From the IMG/VR virus record IMGVR_UViG_2660237930_000002: a stretch of 55,858 nucleotides of DNA; one strand, 5' to 3'. The translations under genes and the position numbers were made by a program. Under the pieces are notes generated by a model that ran no database searches, was not told the DNA's origin, and was given only the letters and a program-made list of their open reading frames with translations. Position 1 is the first letter of the stretch. Every line of letters starts with the position of its first letter. Below are positions 25,120 to 45,688 of this stretch, in pieces. Source of the stretch: a virus. Its lineage: Duplodnaviria > Heunggongvirae > Uroviricota > Caudoviricetes.

Positions 25120-25461
25120 TTGATGGCTAAATCAGCAGCAGAGCGCAAAGCCGCTCAGAGAGCCAGACAAGCTGCATCTGGTGTGCGTAAGCTGGAGATT
25201 GTGCTTGATGCTCAGGAAATTGAAATGCTGGAGCGTAACTGTGCCACGCGTCGCCCCGGGCATGCGCCTTACGAATTTGGTGAGTATATAGCGTTACTGA
25301 TCCGCCAGGATGATGCACGCGTGCGCGGGCGTATAAAATCGATCAGCAGAAAACGTTGCGGTAAGTGCGGCGAGAGAGTTCCAGTTAATTCATGCCCGTG
25401 TAATGGTGACTCGCAATGCTGGGTGACTAAAGGCTGGCATGAAACGAAATTAATAGTGTGA
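25120..25461 (+). CDS. Hypothetical protein with C-terminal Cys cluster (possible zinc-finger regulator)
   Basis: CGKCGERVPVNSCPCNGDSQC motif; basic N-terminus. Confidence 0.4.
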   Translation: MMAKSAAERKAAQRARQAASGVRKLEIVLDAQEIEMLERNCATRRPGHAPYEFGEYIALLIRQDDARVRGRIKSISRKRCGKCGERVPVNSCPCNGDSQCWVTKGWHETKLIV

Positions 25462-25691
25462 CATGTCACGAAGGTGTTATGCCAAAAATACGCTACGACC
25501 TTGAAGATATGAGAGATAACTCAGCAAATTTTCCGAAAGAGGTTAAATTTCTCATGCATAAGTATGGTTGCGCCAGGAGGGATATAGTTATCGACAGTCA
25601 GCACCCTTGCGGCGAGGATGTAATTTTCATTCGCGGTAAATGGGAAGGGTATCTTGACGAGAGTTTTTACGATGAATTTGATGGACTTTGA
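25458..25691 (+). CDS. Hypothetical protein
   Basis: ORF overlapping neighbours by 4 bp. Confidence 0.35.
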   Translation: MTCHEGVMPKIRYDLEDMRDNSANFPKEVKFLMHKYGCARRDIVIDSQHPCGEDVIFIRGKWEGYLDESFYDEFDGL

Positions 25692-37179: not shown

Positions 37180-37643
37180 TGATCGATGTTCGAATTATTC
37201 CCGCTACCGAAGAGCATCTTCAGATGATTTTGCCGGATGTTCGTCAGGCTGATATTGACGAACTGTATGCGGTATCGCTGATGACTACCGAAGATGCGCT
37301 GCGTGTTGGTCTGCGCACTGCGACTATGGCCTGGTCAGGGTTTGCGAACAGAGAACTGGTAACCATGTTTGGTGTATCACCGGCGTCAATGATTGGTGGA
37401 AATGGTACGCCCTGGCTGGTCGGAACCAGCCATATTGAAAAATATCAGAAGACATTTCTTCGCCACTGCCGCCCTGTATTGCAGCAGATGCTGGCAGTTT
37501 ATCCGCGCCTGGAAAACTACGTCGACGAGCGAAACCATGTTGCCAAAGCATGGCTGCACTGGCTTGGATTCAGGCTTGAAGAAGCCGCGCCTTATGGCGC
37601 TCTTGGTCTTAATTTCCACAGATTTCACATGGAGAGAAAATAA
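37179..37643 (+). CDS. Internal virion protein (gp13-like position)
   Basis: Synteny only. Confidence 0.3.
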   Translation: MIDVRIIPATEEHLQMILPDVRQADIDELYAVSLMTTEDALRVGLRTATMAWSGFANRELVTMFGVSPASMIGGNGTPWLVGTSHIEKYQKTFLRHCRPVLQQMLAVYPRLENYVDERNHVAKAWLHWLGFRLEEAAPYGALGLNFHRFHMERK

Positions 37644-38182
37644 TGTGTAACCCAGCCATCGCTTTGGTTGCCGTCACAGTGGCATCCACAGCCGCGTCAA
37701 TGTACAGCCAGAGCAAGCAGGCAAAATACCAGTCAGCCATAGCTGATCGGAATGCTGAAATTGCTGAAGCTCAGGCACAGGATTCAATCAATCGTGGGAA
37801 TATTGAAGCGGATCAGCGTCGTCGTGAAATGCGTCAACGCTCAGGCACTGCGGCGGCCACTATGGGGGCTACCGGTGCGGAATTAAGTAGCGGAACAGCT
37901 CTTGACGTTTTTGCGGATAATGCTCAGTTCGGCACTCTTGATGCGTTAACGACAGTGAATAATGCTCAGCGTGAGGCATATGGGTATCAGGTTCAGGGAA
38001 TGAATGCTCAGGCACAGGGGGCTGCTGCTCAGTCGGCTGCTAAATCATCGATGACCAGCACTTTGTTAACGGCACCACTAAAAGCATACGGTGCATACCA
38101 GATGGGCGGCGGAACGTGGAGCCCGTTCTCTCAGAAAGCTGCGCCGATTTCTGCTGCTGTTGGCACTCCAACAGGTCGATAA
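37643..38182 (+). CDS. Internal virion protein (gp14-like position), Ala/Gln-rich
   Basis: Synteny; low-complexity composition. Confidence 0.3.
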   Translation: MCNPAIALVAVTVASTAASMYSQSKQAKYQSAIADRNAEIAEAQAQDSINRGNIEADQRRREMRQRSGTAAATMGATGAELSSGTALDVFADNAQFGTLDALTTVNNAQREAYGYQVQGMNAQAQGAAAQSAAKSSMTSTLLTAPLKAYGAYQMGGGTWSPFSQKAAPISAAVGTPTGR

Positions 38183-42512: not shown

Positions 42513-44987
42513 ATGAGACAGGAATGTATACAAGCGGTCCAGCAGGCGGCGCAGCGCACGTTAACGGCGCGAGAAATACAGAACATTGAAGACCGCATTT
42601 ATCGAAATATGCGCTCCATTGCTCGTGATGACCCGATGTCGTGGAGACAACTTTCCGAATCAGAGCGGCTATATCGTGCAGCACAATTGGCATCTGAAGA
42701 ATTACAGCGAGAAGCGGCATTAAAGAAACGTCGTGTGGCCCTCACTATAGCCGCACGTCAGAGATTGGATAAATTTATCAATAGCTATCAAGGGGCTGAT
42801 GGGAAACTTGGCGCTCTTAACCGTACTATTGCTTTTAATGCAGACGGTAAATCGAATTTCCTCTCTGTTGAGTCCAGAACAAAAGCCACTCGTGATTATG
42901 CATTGAGTCAATTGCAAGAGGCATTTGAAGCAGTTGATCCTCGCTTTTTTGGCCTGTTTGAAGATGAAGCTGGCGTGCGTGACTTGGTATATGAAATGCG
43001 AGGGCAAAATACTGGCAATGCTAAAGCAAGAAAAGGTGCTAAGGCGTGGAGAGAAGTGACAGATCTACTGCGCCGCCGGTTTAATGATGCTGGTGGGGAC
43101 ATTGGCTATCTCGAAAACTGGGGGATCCCTCAACATCATTCTATGGAAAAGGTTGGGGCGGTATCAAAGGATAAGTGGGTTAGCGATGTTATAGGTAAGC
43201 TGGATCGCAAATATTATATCCGAGCCGATGGACAACTGATGAACGATGCCGAGTTGTCTGCATTTCTTGGAGAGGCTTATAACACGATCGCTACTGGTGG
43301 GCTGAATAAGCTTACTGATACCGGAATGCGAATTTCCGGCGCACGTGCTAACCGTGGTAATGCATCACGACAGATACATTTCAAAGATGCAGATTCCTAT
43401 CTGCAATATCAGCAACTTTATGGCGATCGCTCTCTATGGGAAATCATGGTCGGTCACCTGGAAGGTATCAGTAAAGATATTGCACTGGTGGAAACATATG
43501 GCCCAAACCCCGATCATGTTTTCCGCTCCCTTCTTGATCAGGTTAAGGCAGAAACGGCAACAGCTAACCCGAGTAAAACCGGTAAAGTCGAGCGGCTGGC
43601 GAACAACACAGAGAATCTGTACAACTTTATTTCCGGAAAGACACAGCCTGTAGCGAATCCGCACATCGCGCGATGGTCTGACAATATCCGCAACTGGCTG
43701 GTTGCCAGCAGACTCGGATCCGCGTTGCTGTCATCGTTCTCTGATCTTGGAACCATGTATCTGTCTGCGAAGGTTACCAACCTTCCAATGAACCAGTTAT
43801 TCCGCAACCAACTTGAAGCTATGGACCCAACGAACCGTACAGAACTTGCGCGGGCGCGCCGCGCTGGTCTGGCGATGGAATCTCTACTTGGCAGCGTTAA
43901 CCGCTGGGCGATGGATAATATGGGGCCGTCAGTGTCTCGTTGGGCGGCGACGGCGGTAATGCGTGCCAGTGGGCTTACAGCATGGTCAGATGCGCACAAG
44001 CGCGCCTATGGCGTAACCATGATGGGAAGCCTGGGAGAAGTAGTGTCACGGACACCAGACCTTCGTAGCCTCGATGATTCTGATTTTCGTATCCTGAAAA
44101 GCAAAGGGATTACTGACACAGACTGGAGCGTATGGAAGCTGGCGCAACAGGAGGACTGGGGGAACGGTAATAATACGATGCTGACACCGGAAAGCATTAT
44201 GCGTATCCCTGATTCAGCAGTTAAACATCTTGGTGAGCCTGAACGCGTGAAATTTGAGGCAATGCGTAAACTGCTCGGTGCCGTAACTGAAGAGGTTGAT
44301 ATGGCTGTTATTACACCGGGAGCACGTGAGCAACTGATAACCGGTTCTGGTATTCAGCGTGGAACATGGAAAGGTGAATTAACGAGAAGTGTTTTCCTGT
44401 TTAAATCGTTCCCTATCTCGGTGGTTATGCGTCACTGGTCACGCGCTATGGGTATGCCGTCTGCTGGTGGGCGTGCGGCATATATTGCGACGTTTATTGC
44501 CAGTACGACCATTCTTGGCGCTTTGTCGCAGCAACTTAACGACCTTGCGTCTGGTCGTAATCCTCGCGAGATGACAGGAGAAGATGCTGCTAAATTTTGG
44601 CTTGGTGCTCTACTGAAAGGTGGTGGTCTTGGCCTTTACGGTGACTTTTTATTGTCAGATCACACTAGGTACGGAAGCGGCGCGCTGGCATCGATGCTTG
44701 GCCCGGTAGCTGGTCTGGTTGATGACGTAGTGAAGATTGCTCAGGGCATACCGTTAAATGCTGTGGAAGGGAAGAGTGAGCAGACTGGTGGTGATCTGAT
44801 TAAGCTGGGGAAAGGTCTGATGCCAGGTGCGAATCTCTGGTACTTGAAGGCGGCTCTCGATCACATGATCTTTAACCAGATGCAGGAGTATTTTTCACCA
44901 GGCTATTTGCGTAAAATGGAGCAACGTTCGAAGAAAGAGTTTAACCAGACATACTGGTGGCGACCACAGGATGTCACTCCGCAATAA
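42513..44987 (+). CDS. Internal virion/ejection protein (824 aa)
   Basis: Size and synteny. Confidence 0.4.
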   Translation: MRQECIQAVQQAAQRTLTAREIQNIEDRIYRNMRSIARDDPMSWRQLSESERLYRAAQLASEELQREAALKKRRVALTIAARQRLDKFINSYQGADGKLGALNRTIAFNADGKSNFLSVESRTKATRDYALSQLQEAFEAVDPRFFGLFEDEAGVRDLVYEMRGQNTGNAKARKGAKAWREVTDLLRRRFNDAGGDIGYLENWGIPQHHSMEKVGAVSKDKWVSDVIGKLDRKYYIRADGQLMNDAELSAFLGEAYNTIATGGLNKLTDTGMRISGARANRGNASRQIHFKDADSYLQYQQLYGDRSLWEIMVGHLEGISKDIALVETYGPNPDHVFRSLLDQVKAETATANPSKTGKVERLANNTENLYNFISGKTQPVANPHIARWSDNIRNWLVASRLGSALLSSFSDLGTMYLSAKVTNLPMNQLFRNQLEAMDPTNRTELARARRAGLAMESLLGSVNRWAMDNMGPSVSRWAATAVMRASGLTAWSDAHKRAYGVTMMGSLGEVVSRTPDLRSLDDSDFRILKSKGITDTDWSVWKLAQQEDWGNGNNTMLTPESIMRIPDSAVKHLGEPERVKFEAMRKLLGAVTEEVDMAVITPGAREQLITGSGIQRGTWKGELTRSVFLFKSFPISVVMRHWSRAMGMPSAGGRAAYIATFIASTTILGALSQQLNDLASGRNPREMTGEDAAKFWLGALLKGGGLGLYGDFLLSDHTRYGSGALASMLGPVAGLVDDVVKIAQGIPLNAVEGKSEQTGGDLIKLGKGLMPGANLWYLKAALDHMIFNQMQEYFSPGYLRKMEQRSKKEFNQTYWWRPQDVTPQ

Positions 44988-44995
44988 AAGGAGAT

Positions 44996-45121
44996 ATGAT
45001 GGTTCAAATAACTTTTATTGTACTAATATGTGCAGCGTTTTTATGCTATTCATACATTTTGATAAAAATGGGTTTCAATTGGAACCTCTGTTGCGTGCAG
45101 CGGCATGGTTCGGCTTTGTAG
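44996..45121 (+). CDS. Small hydrophobic peptide (41 aa), candidate membrane moron
   Basis: Hand-translated MMVQITFIVLICAAFLCYSYILIKMGFNWNLCCVQRHGSAL; AAGGAG RBS 7 nt upstream; AT-rich. Confidence 0.3.
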   Translation: MMVQITFIVLICAAFLCYSYILIKMGFNWNLCCVQRHGSAL

Positions 45122-45206
45122 TATTCGGAATTGTATTGTTCGGAAGAATAATAAAATAACTAGTTAATTTGTGGATTGGTGCTGTTTTTCCATGATAGGG
45201 GTAATT

Positions 45207-45587
45207 ATGAGAAAAGTATTTTTGATTTTTGGATTTATGCTTCTCGTTGGATGCCAGTCAGCTGCACAGTTTGAAAGAAATATGCTTACGTGGCGTGGGC
45301 AGAGTATAGACGCAATGGTTCAGCAGTGGGGGTATCCTCAGGGAGAGCTTACATCTCCAGATGGAAACAGAGTGTATGTTTACTCAAGCTCTGGTAGTTA
45401 TAACGTACCACAAACCACAACGTATAATACTACGTCTAATCTAATTGGTAATACTATATATTCAAACACATATGCAACAACTGATGGCGGTTATACACTC
45501 CATTTCAGTTGCTCTGTTTACGTTGAGTTTGGTGCTGATAAGATTATTAAAAATGTTACATGGCGCGGTAATAATTGCGTTGCGTGA
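45207..45587 (+). CDS. Lipoprotein (moron)
   Basis: MRKVFLIFGFMLLVG-C lipobox signal peptide; AT-rich codon usage; followed by terminator. Confidence 0.65.
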   Translation: MRKVFLIFGFMLLVGCQSAAQFERNMLTWRGQSIDAMVQQWGYPQGELTSPDGNRVYVYSSSGSYNVPQTTTYNTTSNLIGNTIYSNTYATTDGGYTLHFSCSVYVEFGADKIIKNVTWRGNNCVA

Positions 45588-45595
45588 CATGTCAC

Positions 45596-45620
45596 AGGCC
45601 GCTTTCGCGGCCTTGTTTTT
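45596..45620 (+). terminator. Rho-independent terminator after lipoprotein gene
   Basis: aggccgc-tttc-gcggcct then TGTTTTT. Confidence 0.65.
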
Positions 45621-45655
45621 AACGAATGCCACCGCCGCCCGGGCGGGAATCCGCA

Positions 45656-45688
45656 GACACAAAAAAGCCCGCGGCGCGGGCTTACTTT
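45656..45688 (-). terminator. Rho-independent terminator for the leftward accessory operon
   Basis: Minus-strand agcccgcg-ccgc-gggct then TTTTTTG; overlaps the stop of the 182-aa ORF. Confidence 0.55.

Follow-up and report, generated by a model that had tools for sequence, protein, structure and literature searches.

The window analyzed here is the whole stretch of 55,858 nucleotides from the virus record IMGVR_UViG_2660237930_000002. Judged from its sequence, it carries an Escherichia coli prophage belonging to Uetakevirus (epsilon15/phiV10-like), and the synteny with phiV10 and epsilon15 is clear. The region of interest is a variable slot behind the gp17-like gene, with which the structural/ejection-protein operon of this prophage ends (Table 1). 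The gp17-like protein is a homolog of phiV10 p20 and epsilon15 gp17, and matches phrog_684 ("virion structural protein") with the e-value 0. The segment in the slot is 100% identical to the sequence from E. coli CU532-9, and 99.5% identical to that from the phage vB_EcoP_ZX5.

Table 1. Features of the post-gp17 slot and its surroundings (positions in the window)
Feature	Position	Strand	Remarks
T7_gp14-family internal virion protein gene	37643-38182		Upstream of the gp17-like gene
gp17-like internal virion/ejection-type protein gene	42513-44987	+	824 aa; left border of the slot; stop codon TAA at 44985-44987
Shine-Dalgarno sequence AAGGAG of the small ORF	44988-44993	+	2 nt to ATG 44996, 5 nt to ATG 44999
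Truncated small ORF	44999-45121	+	40 aa (41 aa from 44996)
1-nt deletion (frameshift) relative to the intact 54-aa gene	45056-45060	+	DNA alignment with L042; single-base gap, TACA-TTTTGAT
Remnant of the C-terminal half (loop and TM2, FDKNGFQLEP..AAAWFGFVVFGIVLFGRIIK)	45058-45159	+	-1 frame, to TAA at 45157-45159
Shine-Dalgarno-like AGGGG of the lipoprotein gene	45197-45201	+	From sequence; 5-nt spacer to ATG 45207
Prolipoprotein gene	45207-45587	+	126 aa; signal peptide, lipobox LVGC(16), Gln at +2; mature domain of ~110 aa
Perfect 12-bp palindrome GTGACATGTCAC	45584-45595	.	Overlaps the TGA stop codon of the lipoprotein gene; conserved right border of the slot
Rho-independent terminator of the late/structural operon	45596-45620	+	7-bp GC-rich stem-loop at 45596-45613, then TGTTTTT
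Second GC-rich hairpin, terminator-like on both strands	45665-45683	.	At the 3′ end of the convergent DUF2335 gene
DUF2335 gene	45682-46230	-	Convergent

A preliminary description of this DNA placed an AT-rich insertion behind the last ejection-protein gene. The composition is confirmed, since the GC content is 0.34 at 44988-45206 and 0.40 in the lipoprotein gene (34-40%), against 0.49 (49%) in gp17 and the prophage. The junction region was matched in 547 of 5426 complete E. coli genomes, and only 34 of these matches contain the segment, which represents an insertion polymorphism. Both phiV10 and epsilon15 are without the segment, and phiV10 is without the lipoprotein gene. The segment is thus variably present (34/547), but the small ORF in it is not newly inserted, since its place corresponds to that of gp18 in epsilon15 and of p21 in phiV10.

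Among the loci compared, the post-gp17 slot is always filled by genes for small, putative envelope proteins. Epsilon15 has gp18 of 64 aa with two hydrophobic segments, and phiV10 has p21 of 46 aa, annotated with two transmembrane (TM) helices. A 57-aa hydrophobic protein and a 98-aa multi-TM protein are encoded in the slot of phiv142-3 and Klebsiella pneumoniae, and a 102-aa secreted protein in that of Citrobacter werkmanii. The slots of Pectobacterium and Pantoea contain lipoproteins unrelated to the one in the window. At least six length classes of the slot are observed in E. coli genomes. The contig scan with the gp17 C-terminus yielded 10 loci, which represent the diversity of the cargo and not its frequencies.

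The right border of the slot is the palindrome GTGACATGTCAC, of which the window has three exact copies. Epsilon15 has it at the same three syntenic positions, as does phiV10, in which the third copy is one mismatch off. It is also found at the slot edge in loci from Citrobacter, Kluyvera, Klebsiella, and Salmonella. The string was not found mentioned in the literature searched. A role as a bidirectional -35 element was considered and dropped; the -10 spacing fits weakly, in epsilon15 only, and by eye. The palindrome and the terminator are common to every cargo variant compared, and an identical hairpin follows phiV10 p21 and the phiv142-3 cargo. The lipoprotein gene is inserted just upstream of this conserved palindrome and the operon terminator. 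The folding energy of the terminator region is -21.5 kcal/mol with z = -2.8. The strong terminator noticed earlier is therefore real, but it follows every cargo variant and is not specific to the insert.

The small ORF had been taken for a 41-aa peptide with one TM segment and a perfect ribosome-binding site. The AAGGAG is present where it was described (44988-44993). The second ATG is likely the start rather than the first one, because of its 5-nt spacer and its alignment with the start of the intact homolog, while the first ATG is only 2 nt from AAGGAG. The product would then be 40 aa, not 41. It consists of 19 native N-terminal codons, which cover TM1 to about Tyr19, and 21 out-of-frame codons. 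The N-terminal half matches the intact homologs P0038 and P0039 (52-54 aa; ..GAFLCYSY..). The P0038 gene in the locus L042 lies directly after gp17 without a lipoprotein gene, and its product is 67% identical to the protein from the repaired window gene.

The single-base gap against L042 was found in all four aligned genomes or phages and in 11 of 11 IMG/VR copies. The 34 E. coli genomes are 98.8-100% identical over the small-ORF region, and the identical 1-nt deletion is carried by all 45 copies examined. Sequencing error was rejected as the source of the frameshift because independent assemblies agree. The A5 run at 45064-45068 was dropped as the frameshift site, since the alignment with the intact gene puts the deletion at 45056-45060. 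No credible start or ribosome-binding site of its own was found for the C-terminal remnant, and at times it is called as a 62-aa ORF with a start inside gp17 (P0040). One metagenomic copy has an additional 26-nt deletion that puts the frame back. Between the repaired gene and L042, pN is 0.17 and pS is 0.88, and therefore the ancestral peptide gene was under purifying selection.

As the alignments indicate, the small ORF is a frameshift-disrupted allele of a gene for a predicted 53/54-aa inner-membrane protein with two TM segments, and the supposed single-TM peptide is a remnant of that protein. Like epsilon15 gp18 and phiV10 p21, the ancestral gene stood immediately behind gp17 and encoded a two-helix protein of the same size class (46-64 aa), whereas the sequences are unrelated (different PHROGs or none) and the window copy is frameshifted. 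The position after gp17 is retained in the window, but a two-TM product of 45-65 aa is not, only TM1 being in frame with the start. The repaired peptide matched no family in the Pfam, NCBIfam, or PADLOC scans. The decayed gene probably once had an envelope role similar to the one proposed below for the lipoprotein, and then lost its selective value. A recent pseudogene can look like a plausible small ORF with a perfect ribosome-binding site.

The second gene of the slot is annotated by PGAP as WP_157905739.1. Its product begins with MRK-VFLIFGFML-LVGC16, which agrees with the signal and lipobox pattern of bacterial lipoproteins ([LVI][ASTVI][GAS]C), and the canonical lipobox reported earlier for the ORF at 45207-45587 (LVGC, Cys16) is upheld. 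Among 62 homologs with 25-79% identity, the lipobox Cys is kept in at least 90%, and the variants LVGC, LSGC, LAGC, and LTGC all conform to the pattern. Cys102 and Cys124 are invariant among the 62 homologs, and a GNNC motif is conserved at the C-terminus. The precursor would leave the cytoplasm through Sec, receive its lipid at Cys16, and lose the signal peptide to signal peptidase II. A residue other than Asp at +2 sends a lipoprotein to the outer membrane by Lol, and the Gln at this position predicts such Lol-dependent sorting. The domain of ~110 aa would face the periplasm, and be stabilized by a disulfide between Cys102 and Cys124.

The family corresponds to PHROG 3716, whose function is unknown, and includes 3704 cluster representatives at E ≤ 1e-3; a look-up of distant members gave metagenomic sequences only. 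The query matched no Pfam family at E ≤ 0.1, and no NCBIfam or PADLOC entry. Against Pfam, the 62 homologs gave sub-threshold matches only, to CAP_assoc_N (4 members) and DUF4309 (3 members); neither SmpA_OmlA/BamE (PF04355) nor a BLIP-like family HMM was matched above the gathering threshold. The AlphaFold2 model, with pLDDT 84.7, has the two-helix and three-strand arrangement of BamE/BLIP as its predicted fold, and no membrane-spanning helix after the signal peptide. A profile search matched 4h0a with the e-value 1e-4, and the BFVD matches include phage SmpA/OmlA lipoproteins. The homology search once proposed for the lipoprotein thus provided a family and a BamE/BLIP-like predicted fold, but no Pfam match.

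Many BamE/OsmE/BLIP-like (SmpA_OmlA-type) proteins, which include TpgA and the T6SS immunity protein BtiO, are lipoproteins as well, and many work by binding other proteins where the outer membrane faces the periplasm. The window lipoprotein differs from them in its extra long beta-hairpins, the GNNC motif at its C-terminus together with the putative disulfide pair, and its phage-borne and variably present gene. No Pfam match to SmpA_OmlA, BLIP, or DUF4309 reaches the threshold.

The lipoprotein gene has a wider distribution than this slot arrangement. In Salmonella and several other loci it starts 9-12 nt after the gp17 stop codon, without the peptide gene. In a Klebsiella phage the lipoprotein is 79% identical though gp17 is only 28% identical. 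GC-rich viral contigs have the gene between the gp16-like gene and the gp17-like gene, in the Burkholderia phage vB_E332 it and the gp17-like gene are convergent, and in some GC-rich prophages it is found among early genes, unlinked to ejection genes. The tailspikes that accompany it differ widely (GH28-like, endosialidase, GDSL lipase, and P22-type), the gp17 proteins are divergent too, and no co-variation with these partners pointing to a target was observed. Its composition and distribution characterize the lipoprotein gene as an intact, AT-rich, and horizontally exchanged gene, independent of the peptide gene. At present it is a typical accessory gene and no surprise.

No sigma-70-like site with at least 9 of 12 matches was found on the plus strand at 45001-45206, a consensus scan being blind to weak or non-canonical promoters, and a relaxed scan upstream of the lipoprotein gene revealed nothing convincing either. 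Of the properties of a moron, variable presence and deviant composition were observed, while an own promoter and an own terminator were not. Since the gene has no detected promoter of its own, abuts gp17 in relatives, and uses the terminator of the operon, it is probably late-operon cargo, and the designation as a moron in the strict sense is not supported. The lipoprotein is probably, and most simply, the last product of the late operon. The missing promoter makes protection of a lysogen doubtful, save by read-through or from an unrecognized promoter. The anatomy of the locus, with a slot, a frameshifted peptide gene, and independent lipoprotein cargo, can be stated with high confidence.

The most plausible role of the lipoprotein, still a tentative one and somewhat less likely than not, is superinfection exclusion. 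The BamE/BLIP-like domain of the model may be a protein-binding module. It would bind an envelope component, either an outer-membrane protein, from its periplasmic side, or the conduit that an incoming phage builds from its ejection proteins, and this binding would stop related phages from entering infected or lysogenic cells and cell debris. Such a block would amount to superinfection exclusion or to the protection of progeny, of the kind known from T5 Llp, Rtp45, Cor, or P22 SieA. The recurrent linkage of the lipoprotein gene to ejection-protein genes in distant phages is consistent with this role. On the other side, the mature protein is about twice the size of the known exclusion lipoproteins, BamE-like lipoproteins also have housekeeping and stress roles, and some of the GC-rich prophage homologs are unlinked to ejection genes. 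Taken as a whole, the explanation that blends the anatomy with the exclusion function falls slightly short of an even chance.

In P22, the sieA gene lies just after the last ejection-protein gene. SieA resembles the window lipoprotein in being an envelope protein with several unrelated sequence types at one locus, while it is a polytopic inner-membrane protein expressed from its own promoter in the prophage; for the window protein, a lipoprotein, no promoter was detected. In PHROG and Pfam it gave no match to any of the three SieA types. SieA acts against related phages by blocking their ejection-protein conduit (PMC10883804). Receptors are locked by Llp and Rtp45, which are outer-membrane lipoproteins on the periplasmic side (PMC12685063). 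Llp, Rtp45, and Cor act through binding to envelope proteins from the periplasmic side (PMC12685063, PMC9586334), and share with the window protein a phage origin, a known or predicted lipoprotein nature at the inner leaflet of the outer membrane facing the periplasm, accessory genes near virion or host-recognition genes, and highly variable sequences. Homology to Llp, Cor, or Rtp45 was not found by PHROG, Pfam, or PADLOC, nor among the PDB fold matches listed. Their mature proteins are ~6 kDa, compared with ~12 kDa for the window lipoprotein. The phage in the window also differs as a podovirus with O-antigen or capsule as the primary receptor, and no outer-membrane protein receptor is known for it.

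The preliminary description regarded both ORFs as a two-gene membrane moron. On this reading, a functional 41-aa single-TM peptide and a lipoprotein would be expressed from the prophage as a self-contained unit and act jointly on the envelope. The two ORFs are indeed adjacent and AT-rich, they occur together in 34 of 34 E. coli genomes and in 11 IMG/VR copies, TM1 is intact behind a strong ribosome-binding site, and T4 Imm, a small two-TM protein, and Sp are a precedent for a membrane pair. The co-occurring copies are, however, ~99% identical and therefore represent one recent lineage, not repeated co-selection. The peptide ORF is frameshifted against its intact 52-54-aa homologs, one copy has lost ATG 44999, no promoter was found, and each gene occurs without the other: the lipoprotein gene without the peptide gene in Salmonella, Klebsiella, and other loci, and the intact peptide homolog without the lipoprotein gene. 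Such a joint unit is quite improbable, and the locus is an ordinary phage accessory locus, not a working two-gene unit. The small gene could still be alive if translation or transcription slipped by -1 in a programmed manner within the T/A-rich 45056-45068 and produced the full two-TM protein at a low level. Next to the frameshift there is a T4 run and then an A5 run, the downstream frame is open to the ancestral stop, and the frameshifted allele is kept in all copies, although their ~99% identity gives this retention little weight. There is no canonical X_XXY_YYZ heptamer at the junction, the intact relatives need no frameshift, and in one copy a second deletion has put the frame right, a repair that is unexpected if slipping sufficed. 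A slip of this kind is extremely improbable.

For the lipoprotein alone, a contribution to host fitness or virulence (serum resistance, envelope robustness, or stress tolerance, like lambda Bor or OsmE/BamE-type proteins), with no role in phage exclusion, is unlikely. It would suit the resemblance of the predicted fold to BamE and OsmE, the presence of the allele in extraintestinal and avian pathogenic strains (APEC O1, CE10, IAI39, and O4:H5), and the abundance of a homolog in Salmonella, where the P0013 sequence is indexed in 930 collection blocks. But no independent promoter was found, the place of the gene as the last one in a late lytic operon speaks against its steady expression in the lysogen, no homology to the Bor, Lom, or TraT families is observed, and the recurrent linkage to ejection genes in distant phages would be left unexplained. 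Another reading is that the lipoprotein serves the lytic cycle, for example by neutralizing, in the cell that makes them, ejection proteins that degrade peptidoglycan or act on membranes, or by tuning envelope disruption and lysis timing, as an inhibitor of the BLIP or T6SS-immunity kind. The gene is adjacent to and, as far as the sequence tells, co-transcribed with ejection genes, and in GC-rich relatives it is flanked by the gp16-like gene and the gp17-like gene; enzyme inhibitors and BtiO belong to the fold class; the epsilon15 gp15 record has an HHpred note for lytic transglycosylase, and a gene neighboring that of vB_E332 is annotated with a lytic transglycosylase domain. The gene is dispensable, however, being present in only 34 of 547 E. 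coli matches and absent from the viable phiV10 and epsilon15, and ejection proteins are packaged from the cytoplasm and would not meet a periplasmic lipoprotein in the producing cell. A lytic-cycle role is accordingly improbable.

Superinfection exclusion remains the preferred role, and it can be extended to a more specific and rather doubtful proposal for the family. PHROG 3716 may represent an unrecognized class of entry blockers of epsilon15/BcepC6B-type podophages, whose BamE/BLIP-like domain, at the outer membrane on its periplasmic side, would stop the assembly of the gp15-gp17 conduit or lock a secondary receptor in the outer membrane, and the GTGACATGTCAC-bounded slot may be a dedicated exchange site for envelope "immunity" cargo. 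The paper on vB_EcoP_ZX5 does not mention the lipoprotein gene. This cultured phage has the identical cassette, which makes an experimental test practical. If the lipoprotein does stop phages from entering, the exclusion proteins of O-antigen-specific podophages would gain a new structural type, and the binding partner would provide a handle on the poorly known post-adsorption steps and on any secondary receptor. The family is large and uncurated, and one experiment would provide an annotation for many genes in prophages of Salmonella, E. coli, and Klebsiella.

Across 44900-45700 the sequence matches the chromosome of E. coli O4:H5 CU532-9 at 100% identity and temperate podophage vB_EcoP_ZX5 at 99.5%, and gene order and similarity place this region in an epsilon15/phiV10-like (Uetakevirus) prophage. 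The gene with its 3' end at 44987 encodes 824 aa and is a homologue of phiV10 p20 and epsilon15 gp17 (phrog_684, annotated as "virion structural protein"). Three large genes lie downstream of a T7_gp14-family internal virion protein gene, of which this is the final one, and thus the label "last ejection-protein gene" in the preliminary description is fair, the ejection role of gp17 itself being assigned by analogy. The AT-rich segment reported after this gene is a real dip in composition, with a GC content of 0.34 (44988-45206) and 0.40 (lipoprotein gene) versus 0.49 in gp17 and the prophage. The junction region was matched in 547 of 5426 complete E. coli genomes, only 34 of which contain the segment, and at least six slot-length classes are seen among E. 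coli genomes. Composition, ribosome-binding site, ORFs, lipobox and hairpin were each checked, and all are present and beyond chance; the observation is real, and its interpretation is partly right. A prophage-borne tRNA-Arg gene (anticodon TCT) lies on the minus strand at 28498-28574, with the terminase region on one side and the portal region on the other.

Features of the post-gp17 slot and the places of the conserved palindrome
Feature	Position	Strand	Remark
Shine-Dalgarno of the small ORF, AAGGAG	44988-44993	+	read from the sequence
Small ORF	ATG codons 44996 and 44999; frame end TAG 45119-45121	+	read from the sequence
Lipoprotein ORF	45207-45587	+	PGAP annotation WP_157905739.1
Operon terminator	45596-45613	+	7-bp GC-rich hairpin, then T-run
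Palindrome, place 1			3' of phrog_536 regulator gene, just 5' of small terminase gene
Palindrome, place 2			3' of large terminase gene; beside terminator hairpin in the window and phiV10
Palindrome, place 3			end of the structural operon

The small ORF is a broken gene. When its frame (frame A) was joined to the hydrophobic tail surviving in the -1 frame (frame B) and used as a query, two intact proteins (54 and 52 aa) were found, P0038 (MSHIIFIVIISGAFLCYSYAFDKKGFSLEPQARAAAWFGFVVFGLVLLGRLVGN) and its near variant P0039. The P0038 gene is located directly 3' of a gp17 homologue on a 42-kb contig. Frame A corresponds to the N-terminal half of the intact homologue as far as ..FLCYSY, and frame B to the rest, from FDKNGF to the end. 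In the DNA alignment with the intact gene, one base is absent at TACA-TTTTGAT, positions 45056-45060. Once this base is restored and ATG 44999 is taken as the start, the repaired product aligns with the intact homologue without gaps, and the two genes show 21 differences at 121 non-synonymous sites and 31 at 35 synonymous sites (pN 0.17, pS 0.88). The gap-free alignment and the excess of pS over pN show that the ancestral gene truly encoded a two-helix membrane protein and that the frameshift is recent.

The ribosome-binding site and the hydrophobic frame described earlier are thus present, while the intact gene for a small single-TM peptide is not, one base having been lost relative to the 52-54-aa two-helix homologues. 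The translatable product in the window would be a 40-aa chimera of TM1 and 21 out-of-frame residues. Sequencing error was rejected as the cause, as the identical frame structure is found in four aligned genomes or phages and 11 IMG/VR copies, and over this region the 34 E. coli genomes have 98.8-100% identity. Programmed frameshifting, by which the full small protein would still be made, is very improbable and has nothing in its favour, and the canonical slippery heptamer is absent. ATG 44999 is also lost in one copy. In a copy from an ENA metagenome scaffold (L043, 3001-3135), a second deletion of 26 nt restores the frame; the resulting 44-aa protein keeps the native TM2 and has a shorter TM1.

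The "two-gene" unit does not hold; the lipoprotein is found without the peptide gene, and its neighbor is a recently decayed gene rather than a partner. In Salmonella and several viral contigs, a peptide-free lipoprotein gene starts 9-12 nt past the gp17 stop; for Salmonella, the P0013 sequence has index entries in 930 collection blocks. In a Klebsiella phage the lipoprotein is 79% identical and gp17 just 28% identical. Together with the peptide-free occurrences, this shows that the small ORF and the lipoprotein gene are separable modules at a common hot spot. Their steady pairing in E. coli represents one young lineage, with copies ~99% identical.

The conserved unit is the slot, not the ORF pair. 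Small envelope-protein genes occupy the post-gp17 position in every relative examined: gp18 (64 aa, two hydrophobic segments) in epsilon15; p21-type proteins of 46-48 aa in phiV10, Citrobacter braakii and Morganella (two TM helices are annotated for phiV10 p21); a 57-aa hydrophobic protein and a 98-aa multi-TM protein in phiv142-3 and Klebsiella pneumoniae ATCC 13883; a 58-aa hydrophobic protein and a 92-aa membrane protein in Kluyvera; a 102-aa secreted protein in Citrobacter werkmanii; and two unrelated lipoproteins in Pectobacterium and Pantoea. In Kluyvera sp. (L046, 3902-4036), the slot retains 44 residues (..REFNTTSWWEPGETMPRRAPDLGKAVGQ) from the C-terminus of a Klebsiella-type gp17, which look like a scar of cargo exchange through recombination at the gp17 3' end. 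Cargo swapping by recombination between the conserved gp17 3' end and the conserved right border is therefore indicated.

At the end of every slot variant stand the perfect 12-bp palindrome GTGACATGTCAC and, after it, the terminator. The strong terminator reported after the lipoprotein gene is present (folding of the region, -21.5 kcal/mol, z = -2.8), but as part of this common end it is not specific to the insert. Three exact copies of GTGACATGTCAC exist in the window (25458-25469, 27909-27920 and 45584-45595), against ~0.003 expected by chance in our own estimate; the tool shuffles allow two mismatches and are uninformative. Two of the three adjoin a terminator hairpin, and two share bases with the TGA stop codon of the gene before them. 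Copies are found at three matching syntenic places in epsilon15 (39612, 2142 and 19517) and in phiV10 (the record wrap-around, 2262 and 19493, the copy spanning the record ends having one mismatch). The palindrome is not annotated in either record and was not found in a literature search. It is the least expected observation, and its role may be that of an operator, a roadblock or a recombination junction.

A second variable region adjoins the slot. This convergent block (45682-47330, minus strand) encodes a DUF2335 membrane protein (182 aa, phrog_3996, "moron" category), an overlapping 113-aa ORF (phrog_10654) and a Bro-N antirepressor, and it differs among close relatives, with other genes there in APEC O1, phiV10 and ZX5. 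A GC-rich hairpin at 45665-45683, 50 nt past the operon terminator, overlaps the 3' end of the DUF2335 gene and scores as a terminator on both strands.

The lipoprotein itself bears the canonical lipobox reported for it. A Shine-Dalgarno AGGGG lies 5 nt upstream of its start, and the predicted signal opens with MRK as its n-region and continues through a hydrophobic core to LVGC, whose Cys16 has Gln-Ser-Ala after it. The homology search proposed in the preliminary description matched PHROG 3716 (annotated as function unknown; E = 5e-64), with no match in Pfam, NCBIfam or PADLOC; the protein is outside every curated family. The profile search returned 3704 cluster representatives at E <= 1e-3, mostly metagenomic sequences among the 10 sampled. 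In an alignment of 62 sequences (25-79% identity), Cys102, Gly121 and Cys124 are invariant, and near-invariance extends to the lipobox Cys, the WGYP motif and, within the C-terminal GNNC motif, the GN pair. Conservation of two cysteines in a protein bound for export suggests that they form a disulfide. The AlphaFold model (pLDDT 84.7; two helices, then a sheet of long hairpins), a profile match to 4h0a (E = 1e-4) and BFVD matches to phage "SmpA/OmlA" lipoproteins place the predicted structure in the BamE/BLIP fold class, whose main use is protein-protein binding.

No sigma-70-like promoter was found between the small ORF and the lipoprotein gene, either by the tool scan or by our own relaxed scan, and most relatives have no room for one ahead of the lipoprotein gene. 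Co-transcription with the late structural operon is the simplest reading, and the term "moron", taken strictly, is therefore not supported. Distant homologues adjoining a gp17-like gene show 28-39% identity. In two GC-rich IMG/VR contigs (L033, 2276-2683; L035, 3959-4372) the homologue has the gp16-like gene on one side and the gp17-like gene on the other, all in one orientation. In Burkholderia phage vB_E332 (L056, 6001-6333) it is convergent with the gp17-like gene and opposite in strand to the structural genes, and must therefore be a separate transcription unit, judging from its orientation.

It is possible, though somewhat short of probable, that the lipoprotein functions in exclusion or progeny protection. 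The case for blocking entry is circumstantial: the slot gathers diverse envelope proteins, linkage to gp16/gp17-type genes recurs in four arrangements across distant phages, and prediction gives a periplasmic protein with an outer-membrane anchor and a binding-type fold. The sieA gene occupies an equivalent position on the P22 map. SieA is a precedent for entry blocking (PMC10883804), as are Llp and Rtp45 (PMC12685063). Against exclusion, the lipoprotein has no homology to any known exclusion protein and no co-variation with tailspike or gp17 type, and lysogenic expression is without support; homologues among the early genes of some GC-rich prophages weaken this role further. A host-fitness role is unlikely, and a role as an inhibitor serving the lytic cycle still more so. 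The lipoprotein is a new example of a well-known type of phage accessory protein, encoded at a recombination hot spot.
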